Shown piece by piece: positions 5,567 through 8,196 of a stretch of 9,651 nucleotides of DNA. Position 1 is the first letter of the stretch; the number at the start of each line of letters is the position of its first letter. Where the stretch lies: IMG/VR virus record IMGVR_UViG_2529292715_000010, positions 1 through 9,651 of that record; one strand, given 5' to 3'. The notes beneath the pieces were generated by a model. The model saw nothing but the letters and a program-made list of their open reading frames with translations, was not told the origin of the DNA and searched no databases. The DNA comes from a virus (Duplodnaviria; Heunggongvirae; Uroviricota; Caudoviricetes). The position numbers and the translations under genes were made by a program.

Positions 5567-6919
5567 TTAAGGCTGTTTTTTTATTAATGTCATCGTCCAT
5601 CCTGCAGGGTTGAACTTGAAAGAATACGATTCTCCTGGTGCTAAGCTTTCAAATTTTTTAACTTGCTCTTTCCACCCGTAATCTGGGAGTGGGGTAAGAT
5701 TGAAAAAATATAAACATGAGATTAACGATGTTGTATATAACATCCATGGTAGGAATTTAAAGTGCAAGTGGGAAATATAGTTTAAGAAGTAAACCAATAC
5801 AGAGTACCATATGATTGTTGGTATGACAGAATATCTTCCTCCGCCATGAATTAATAATGGCCATTGCTCACTTGTAGATGAAAGCATTGGTTTTGCTAGT
5901 GAAAACGTTAATGTTAGTATTGCGAAAACTATTGCCGAGCGCATGGGGTAATTGGAAACAATAAATGTAAAAATAGTGATGGAAAGACAAATCATTGTAA
6001 TTGCAATGCAAATTGAATCATGATTCCATAAAGGTGATAAAAAGTCACCATTAGCCCATAAACCCAGAAAAACCTTTGTTGTTAATATTTTGCAAAGTGT
6101 TGCGAAATTAGCTCCAAGAACCATATCAACTCTGGTCTCAGAGGATGTCATAATAATAGAAATAAATTGAATCAAACAAATGGCAATGAAAACGTATTCG
6201 TGAGTGGTTATTTTTTTGTAGATAAGCGTTTTTGTATAAGTATATTTATCCCTACCATTGGAGCCATGAATACTATAAATGGACCACTTAGTCCACATAT
6301 GATTATCGCTATATAATCGTGTGCTTTTTGATAATTGTTTGTAGGCTTTGGAGCTAACATAACAAGAAGTAAATATAGTGATAAATACCAATAATCATTA
6401 GTAACATTGGCGTGCACTTCTGATACTTCCGGCATTATTATAATAAACAAAGCAGTAAATATTCTTGGTGTTATGTTTACGTAACTAAATCTTCCAGAGA
6501 GTATGAAAGATACAAGCAATGCCCTAACAATAATTGCGGAGATGTTAAAAATTAAAGGGGCATACATTAAATTAAAATTTAATGATATGGAGGCAATAAG
6601 TTTTGATATGGTTTGATATGGTTTGATATGGTTTGATATGGTTTGATATGGTTTGATATGGTTTGATATGGTTTGATATGGTTTGATATGGTTTGATATG
6701 GTTTGATATGGTTTGATAATATCCATTTTGAGGGAATATCATTGATGTGAATATGCCATTATTGTATGCCATAGCATACCATACATGACCATCTTCTGCC
6801 CAAAACTGCGGTGTTCTGATTATATCAGGGCGGCGCAAATACATCAAAATAACCGCAATGAAAAATACAGCAATTAAGAAAAATAGTTTTTTTACATATG
6901 ATGTTTTAAGGCTTTTCAT
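5567..6919 (-). pseudogene. Serotype-specific O-antigen glucosyltransferase (GtrC / Gtr[type] class, polytopic membrane protein), interrupted: read across three ORF pieces (6919->6572, 6726->6208, 6391->5567)
   Basis: ATG at 6919 overlaps the gtrB stop (ATGA), as in gtrABC operons. The products are hydrophobic and the DNA is AT-rich. The N-terminal and C-terminal pieces share one frame; the middle piece is in another. Frame changes are at the 10-bp repeat array (6601-6720) and most plausibly at the A7 run (plus-strand T7, 6211-6217). Confidence 0.65.
6601..6720. repeat. Tandem array of 12 copies of a 10-bp unit (gtttgatatg): 10 perfect copies at 6611-6710, plus one single-mismatch copy on each side
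   Basis: Directly visible in the sequence. The array lies inside the 5' coding region of the type-specific gtr gene, and all three reading frames through it encode the same permuted decapeptide (PYQTISNHIK). Confidence 0.95.
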
Positions 6920-7838
6920 TTTTGTTTCTCATTTTTGATGATGTATTTGGGACGATGTTTGCTTTCAATATAGATTCTGCCTATATATTCACCGAGAACA
7001 CCAATCCCGATCAGCTGCACTCCACCCAAGAAAAGTATTGATACAAGCAGGGAGGGATATCCGCGAACTGGGTTGCCAAAGATAAGGGTGTCTATAATCA
7101 TCCATGCACCATATAAAAACGAAATGCTTGCAACAAACAAGCCTATATAAGTCCATACGCGAAGAGGAAAGGTTGAAAAACTTGTGATGCCTTCCAGTGC
7201 CAGATTCCATAATTTCCAGCCATTAAATTTTGAGATGCCAGCAACACGCTCTGCGCGTACATATTCAACGACATCCGTCTGACCACCCACCCAGCTCAGT
7301 ATGCCTTTCATGAAAAGATTTCGCTCAGGCAATAGTTTAATGTTCTCCACAACCTCACGAGACATGAGTCGAAAATCTCCGACATTTTCCTCGATCTTTG
7401 GAGTGCTTATTTGTTGTGTAACTTATAGAACCACTCAGCTGTCTTACGTTTCAGTCGTCCATCAGTTGAGCGGTCTGAACGTTTAGCAAGCACCATGTCA
7501 GCACCTGCCTGCCACTTTTCAATAAGATGAGGGATAACCTCAATAGGGTCTTGCAGGTCGACATCAATAGGAATTACAGCATCGCCGCTTGCATGGTCTA
7601 ACCCTGCAAATAAGGCTGGTTCTTTACCAAAGTTGCGTGTAAATGACAGCGGAACAACTAGCGGGTCTGAAACAGCCAGCGCGTTAATAATTGACTCTGT
7701 GGCATCTTTACTTCCGTCATTTATGAATACAATTTCTACTTCATATGGCTTCAACTCTTGGAATTCACGTACCGTTTTATAGAAAACAGGTATCGCTTCT
7801 TCTTCATTGAAGACAGGAACGACAAGAGATATTTTCAT
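6916..7838 (-). pseudogene. gtrB: Bactoprenol glucosyltransferase GtrB (GT2 family), frameshifted at about 7408-7410
   Basis: N-terminal ORF 7838->7407 ends ...WFYKLHNK*. The C-terminal ORF (6916..7365) is open upstream of its ATG as ...[25 protein letters not shown].... The two frames abut at minus-strand 'aacaaataagc', where one extra A would give ...HNKIST... in a single ~307-codon frame. Start overlaps the gtrA stop (ATGA). Confidence 0.85.
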
Positions 7839-8196
7839 TTCGCATCCCTAAAAACAATGAACTTTGAATAGACGAAACCGCACACCAGACTGATGGCGGA
7901 GAAGGTGATAAGAGTAACTATTGGAGGAAGTGAGCATTTATCAGCAGCCCAACCAACAATCGCACTCAATATTCCCATGAATCCCACGTATAACATGTAG
8001 CGTATCGCTGTAGTCGATGCTTTGATGTGAATCTTGCATTCGCGAAGAAGCTAAAGCTCACAGCTACTACGAAACCTGTGAAGTTTGCCAGGGCCTGACT
8101 GGTATGCGCGGCATAGATACATACACCAAAAACTACCCAGTGTATAAGTGTATTCAGCACACCTATAGATGTGTACTTTACAAATAACTTTAACAT
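7835..8196 (-). pseudogene. gtrA: GtrA (small membrane flippase-type subunit of the Gtr system), frameshifted at about 8025
   Basis: ATG at 8196 gives MLKLFVKYTSIGVLNTLIHWVVFGV...FANARFTS then diverges to a stop at 7941. A second frame from ~8031 reads [62 protein letters not shown], ending exactly at the gtrB start overlap. Total length with one base restored is 120 codons. Confidence 0.8.

Follow-up and report, generated by a model that had tools for sequence, protein, structure and literature searches.

Does an operon in which every gene is out of frame record the inactivation of O-antigen modification, or the errors of a draft sequence? The question is raised by the gtrA-gtrB-gtr(type) serotype-conversion operon on IMG/VR record IMGVR_UViG_2529292715_000010, a stretch of 9,651 nucleotides (the window) that corresponds end to end to contig AFGW01000014.1 in the draft genome of Shigella flexneri VA-6 (assembly GCA_000213695.2). 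The assembly is assigned to this strain in a published strain table (PMC6397287), and in the protein collection a 274-aa fragment is named 'serotype-specific glucosyl transferase [Shigella flexneri VA-6]'. A first-pass annotation made from the sequence alone had placed one single-base break in each of the three genes, together with a repeat-array offset, and proposed either very recent inactivation or base-calling errors. Comparison with phage SfV and with 24 other contigs carrying the locus indicates that the answer differs between genes. The breaks in gtrA and gtrB are very probably artefacts of the VA-6 draft assembly, whereas gtrV is a genuine, lineage-wide pseudogene and the sole true pseudogene of the operon.

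The three genes are co-oriented on the minus strand, as seen in both the open reading frame (ORF) list and the sequence. As first described, start and stop codons overlap in a 4-nt ATGA at 7835-7838 between gtrA and gtrB and at 6916-6919 between gtrB and gtrV; every gene falls into two or three ORFs in differing frames. The cluster of phage SfV (NC_003444 / U82619) has the same three genes in the same order and orientation, the same overlapping stops and starts and the same neighbours (tail-fibre assembly gene, hairpin terminator, attP and int), with ~97% nucleotide identity that extends through gtrV-gtrB-gtrA into both flanks. From the Mu-type baseplate genes through int the window and SfV are collinear, and similarity ends completely at ~8905. 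The proposed operon identity therefore stands on alignment and becomes specific: the cluster is assigned to the SfV type and, given the ~97% identity, gtr(type) to gtrV. Measured against SfV, single bases are missing at 2305, 6210/6211, 7409, 8024 and 8838, and the larger changes are a loss of 182 bp at 3881 and a gain of 100 bp at 6602-6701 (ten repeat units). What sets the window apart from SfV is thus an A7 tract in gtrV (A8 in SfV) with ten extra 10-bp units, a defective prophage (IS600-cut int, 182-bp baseplate deletion) and five private single-base deletions. Since the breaks are defined as differences from a 97%-identical reference and not as a statistical pattern, chance is not at issue.

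The SfV alignment puts the frame breaks where the first-pass annotation had them: at 8024 in gtrA, at 7409 in gtrB and at 6211-6217 in gtrV, with the array offset also present. Aligned to the reference, the halves of the genes are contiguous, and one restored base rejoins gtrA into 120 aa and gtrB into 307 aa, the latter with 1 non-synonymous difference from SfV, in agreement with the predicted sizes. The 447 aa predicted for gtr(type) was approximate only. With the ten extra units removed and one A added, window gtrV encodes 417 aa, the length of SfV GtrV, with 10 non-synonymous sites relative to it; with the array kept and brought into frame it would encode ~450 aa.

Sister contigs covering the same locus (n = 24, from other assemblies and sequencing runs, including Logan assemblies of public runs) were found by exact-protein matching with three window-encoded proteins, namely two C-terminal pieces of GtrV (274 aa and 243 aa) and the product of the tail-fibre assembly gene next to gtrV, and part of them were aligned base by base to the window over spans of 2-6.7 kb. 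Most of the base-aligned contigs carry 0-3 substitutions relative to the window; S. flexneri K-1770 (contig L003, AKMX01000008.1, aligned to window 321-6887) carries more. The 6.7-kb contig L015, which reaches from the gp45-like gene as far as the IS600 junction and has the ten-unit array as in the window, differs by 3 substitutions and exactly five insertions or deletions (indels), each of them one homopolymer base missing from the window (Table 1). At these positions (2305, 5509, 7409, 8024 and 8838) the short allele occurs in none of the sister contigs covering the site. The gtrA break, a loss of one base from TT on the coding strand, is absent from L015, L021 and SfV; both contigs encode full-length GtrA, and the 120-aa sister protein matches PF04138 (GtrA/DPMS transmembrane domain, E = 1.8e-14). 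The gtrB break shortens A4 to A3 on the coding strand; many sister contigs encode the full-length 307-aa GtrB, which matches PF00535 (E = 7e-31), and the 143-aa gtrB fragment is on record for the VA-6 assembly only, bar one contig-end coincidence. That coincidence, in L013, proved to be another gtr locus, 97.5% identical, where the end of the contig truncates the product, and is not a shared frameshift. Exact-protein matching of the 76-aa gtrA fragment gave no result and is uninformative, since the source annotation does not call this ORF. The truncated gp45 product (136 aa) is likewise on record for VA-6 only. The deletions at 2305, 5509 and 8838 lie outside the gtr genes and have a signature like that of the gtrA and gtrB breaks.

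Because the five private changes are all homopolymer deletions, one of them non-coding, against essentially no private substitutions, all five are most likely consensus base-calling errors (homopolymer undercalls). Of the two explanations first offered for every break, error is thus the better reading for gtrA and gtrB, where the short runs are private to VA-6 and longer in the sister contigs. A different account would have all breaks real in VA-6, the operon and neighbouring prophage genes having decayed by single-base deletions after the death of gtrV. The deletions do stand in the deposited sequence, the prophage is visibly decaying (IS600 in int, 182-bp baseplate deletion, dead gtrV) and Shigella genomes are rich in pseudogenes. 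We nevertheless consider wholesale decay unlikely: five private indels stand against 0-3 substitutions relative to the sister contigs, all are deletions in homopolymers, including 2-base runs and a non-coding terminator arm, none is common to any other assembly, and K-1770, a draft of the same era, shows a similar scatter of private single-base indels (321, 339, 354, 1358, 1901, 2657 and 6887). K-1770 also has an 11-bp difference at 2155, and its tail genes are broken into many short ORFs.

Several points weigh against reading the five deletions as errors. The reading is drawn from the pattern of changes in assembled sequence; the gtrA site is covered by two sister contigs only and the int site by one only; and two of the five runs comprise just 2 bases, a length at which miscalling of homopolymers is less usual. 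Genuine homopolymer deletions arising in a burst in VA-6, for example through mismatch-repair deficiency, are improbable and would account for the same pattern. If the deletions are errors, the VA-6 draft calls for caution, as five undercalls in 9.65 kb would create false pseudogenes in gtrA, gtrB, the gp45-like gene and int, and pseudogene counts from this assembly would be too high.

The gtrV lesions have a different distribution. On the plus strand, T7 is found at 6211-6217 in the window and in 24/24 sister contigs, where SfV has T8. The base loss turns ...ACA AAA AAA AT. into ...ACA AAA AAA TAA and places a stop after ~residue 203 of 417. K-1770, the most divergent copy and one without the 182-bp deletion, still has the A7 tract and an array of eight units; the two lesions, present in all 24 sister contigs, are therefore real and, because K-1770 carries both, older than the split of these strains. 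Inactivation, as first proposed, is therefore supported for gtrV, but not as a very recent event. The suggestion that every break, gtrV included, is a sequencing or assembly artefact and that the operon is intact in the cell could appeal to the several suspect homopolymer lengths in the contig and to the difficulty of assembling tandem repeats; it is already contradicted by the recurrence of A7 and the expanded array in 24 contigs from other assemblies or Logan runs, and is hardly conceivable. All reading frames of the operon are thus not alike: gtrV is closed in 25/25 copies, gtrA and gtrB in this contig alone. The pN/pS ratios (non-synonymous to synonymous differences per site) relative to SfV, 0.20 for gtrV, 0.02 for gtrB and 0.07 for gtrA, are consistent with relaxed constraint on gtrV only.

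Within window gtrV, the N- and C-terminal parts share a frame (+100 - 1 = 99), the 130 codons in the middle being out of frame, and the N-terminal frame stops at 6572. The fragments are members of a 90% GtrV cluster; Pfam and NCBIfam have no model for GtrV. Complete E. coli genomes, tried as comparators for gtrV, matched the gtrA-gtrB half only and were of no use for that gene. The expected consequence of the gtrV lesions is that type V glucosylation of the O antigen does not take place and that GtrA and GtrB presumably remain available, redundant with those of any other gtr cluster that the genome may have. Gene-presence serotyping would score gtrV as present in this lineage despite the dead gene, so that a frameshift check is needed.

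In S. flexneri serotyping, mismatches between genotype and phenotype are known to arise from disrupted gtr and oac genes (PMC6692546, PMC5610704, PMC7979695), and the inactivated genes reported there are likewise frameshift or nonsense lesions in the serotype-specific gtr of an otherwise recognisable cluster; these papers give no allele description to set against the A7/array allele. An appendix flags gtrV in three isolates of serotype 3a for an amber mutation and/or frameshift (PMC6692546). The flagged lesions are consistent with the A7/array allele and may represent it; the circumstantial nature of the link to serotype 3a counts against leaning on it. The locus is of an ordinary kind, already known, and its variable repeat is a minor new detail.

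This repeat, the other gtrV lesion, is a 10-bp tandem array around codon 70 (Table 1). SfV has no full unit, just a proto-repeat, TATCAAACCATATCAAAAC, formed by two copies of the heptamer TATCAAA at a spacing of 10 bp. Most plausibly, slippage between these copies produced the first units, followed by expansion and contraction through replication slippage, and the array would be a clean example of repeat expansion out of a 7-bp proto-repeat. In the 20 assemblies that contain the array in full, the number of extra units is 2, 2, 2, 2, 4, 4, 5, 5, 5, 6, 6, 7, 7, 8, 8, 8, 10, 10, 11 and 13; a point against relying on these copy numbers is that they come from short-read assemblies and that contigs L018, L028 and L031-L033 break inside the array.

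Each added unit shifts the gtrV frame by one. A perfect array within coding sequence, with a copy number that is widely different among nearly identical isolates and a unit that alters the frame, has the features of a slipped-strand phase-variation switch (contingency locus) for type V glucosylation. Such a role is very unlikely here. No array length restores GtrV because the A7 stop, present in 25/25 copies, lies downstream: in L017 the array (n = 6) is in frame, yet translation ends at the A7 stop to give 223 aa. Nor is there an in-frame excess, 2/20 copy numbers being multiples of 3 (n = 6 twice) in look-ups partly biased against such values, and this sample, less biased than an earlier one, shows no convincing frame preference. 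An apparent avoidance of multiples of three in that first sample (0/10) was rejected, the look-up having been biased since an in-frame array alters the query gene call. Among the 15/45 members listed of the 90% cluster, no full-length GtrV with an in-frame expansion was found and all full-length ones are 417 aa; intact gtrV alleles carry no array. As no copy number restores GtrV, the array is best described as a neutral hypervariable repeat rather than a switch, one that would drift neutrally inside dead gtrV. There is a slim chance that it acts as an on/off switch in A8 relatives, or through rare transcriptional or ribosomal slippage on A7 when in frame; if true, a serotype-converting phage gene would carry a contingency mechanism based on a repeat, unlike the Salmonella epigenetic gtr switch.

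Salmonella gtr operons reportedly undergo Dam/OxyR epigenetic phase variation via paired GATC sites. That system controls on/off expression of a gtrABC-type operon and acts at the promoter (Broadbent et al. 2010), whereas the variable element here is a coding-sequence repeat in a dead gene. Paired GATC sites upstream of gtrA were not found; because a single GATC (8251) occurs within 8150-8480, a Salmonella-type Dam/OxyR promoter switch is not suggested by the upstream sequence. On the strand opposite to gtrV, the array region (6603-6722, plus strand) contains a ladder of sigma-70-like consensus matches (TTGATA, 18 nt, TATGGT), which are consensus matches only and a by-product of the repeat unit.

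No earlier description of the array itself was found. In a literature search with six of the twenty rotations that the decamer has on its two strands, all the matches listed were unrelated papers, and searches for the expanded array in collections of viruses, genomes and metagenomes gave hits to unrelated arrays only, mostly from Bacteroidota, without gtrV homology. The decamer ATATCAAACC and near variants (..TCAAACC) form short arrays at many dispersed sites in some Bacteroidales metagenome-assembled genomes (MAGs). Decamer arrays with no similarity to gtrV were seen at Bacteroidota MAG loci L037-L056 and on metagenome contigs L057-L068, and assembly CAVYRO01 holds more than a dozen such loci. 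A panel of 36 loci is available for MLVA typing of S. flexneri by variable-number tandem repeats (VNTRs), with no gtr locus among the 36 (PMC2806262). Like the array, the panel's VNTRs have short units, often lie inside a pseudogene and vary in copy number among close isolates; the only 10-bp unit of the panel has another sequence and lies in osmY (PMC2806262). The array changes between isolates that are nearly substitution-free over several kb and could therefore serve as a high-resolution typing marker; at least, it is a fast-evolving marker that could resolve subtypes within a clonal lineage of S. flexneri. Read mappers may be tripped by the extra repeat, 20-130 bp in length.

Table 1. Features of the window and single-base positions at which the VA-6 contig is shorter than its sister contigs
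Feature	Position	Strand	Details
Mu-type baseplate and tail-fibre genes	1-5444	+	SfV alignment, Pfam labels
gp45-like gene, single-base site	2305		GG to G; longer allele in 6 sister contigs and SfV
Predicted C/G-arm hairpin terminator	5495-5516		Between tail-fibre assembly gene and gtrV; terminator scan
Terminator arm, single-base site	5509		G8 to G7; longer allele in 24 sister contigs; SfV not scorable
gtrV pseudogene	5567-6919	-	Three frames (ORFs 6572-6919, 6208-6726, 5567-6391); serotype V-specific glucosyltransferase
A7 tract	6211-6217	-	A8 in SfV; one-base loss
10-bp tandem array	6602-6718	-	Around gtrV codon 70; unit ATATCAAACC (coding strand); TRF 11.7 copies, 100% matches
gtrB	6916-7838	-	ORFs 7407-7838 and 6916-7365; bactoprenol glucosyltransferase, GT2
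gtrB, single-base site	7409		T4 to T3 (+ strand); longer allele in 14 sister contigs and SfV
gtrA	7835-8196	-	ORFs 7966-8196 and 7835-7996; GtrA family; ~97% identical to SfV gtrA
gtrA, single-base site	8024		AA to A (+ strand); longer allele in 2 sister contigs and SfV
attP core, 46 bp	8398-8443		Between gtrA and int; exact match to attP core annotated in phage SfI
int 3' remnant	8458-8904	-	~149 of 387 codons; PF00589 on ORF 8458-8856; SfV int homology ends 8905
int, single-base site	8838		T6 to T5 (+ strand); longer allele in 1 sister contig (L015) and SfV
IS600 (IS3 family)	8905-9651	-	Truncates int, reaches contig end

As a whole, the window holds the right end of a defective serotype-converting prophage of SfV type, with baseplate and tail-fibre genes followed by the hairpin terminator, gtrV-gtrB-gtrA on the minus strand, the attP core and the 3' third of an int gene cut by IS600. 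The IS600 sequence is 100% identical to a feature annotated as 'IS3-like element IS600 family transposase' on a S. flexneri plasmid, and the arrangement up to its boundary is confirmed in the independent contig L015. The attP core is unrecombined, that is, a free-phage (attP) junction and not a prophage end; a tandem lysogen or a rearrangement mediated by an IS element could explain this. No tRNA gene (ARAGORN) and no RNA family (Rfam) was detected in the window.

Further upstream, the 182-bp deletion (junction 3881, window 3874-3889) joins two genes, gp47-like (Baseplate_J) and gp48-like, into a single in-frame ORF of 483 aa (2927-4378). It is common to L004, L015, L017 and L018 and is not found in K-1770. 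The alignment pieces on either side overlap by ~16 bp, and a deletion between short direct repeats is therefore suggested. With int truncated as well, the prophage is defective in several ways. At the place homologous to the predicted terminator, the SfV annotation has a rho-independent terminator; the G arm is G7 in the window and G8 in 24 other contigs. In L021, six substitutions cluster in the C8/G8 terminator loop (5501, 5502, 5504, 5505, 5508 and 5509), the first two of which are shared by K-1770, and the loop looks as if it had been flipped or replaced rather than altered by independent point changes. Finally, sister short-read contigs start or end exactly at window 7775 (L004-L007, L017 and L020) and at window 2178 (L004 and L015-L018), which suggests that the sequence adjoining these two positions is repeated elsewhere in the sister genomes, perhaps within a second copy of gtrA-gtrB or within a related tail module.

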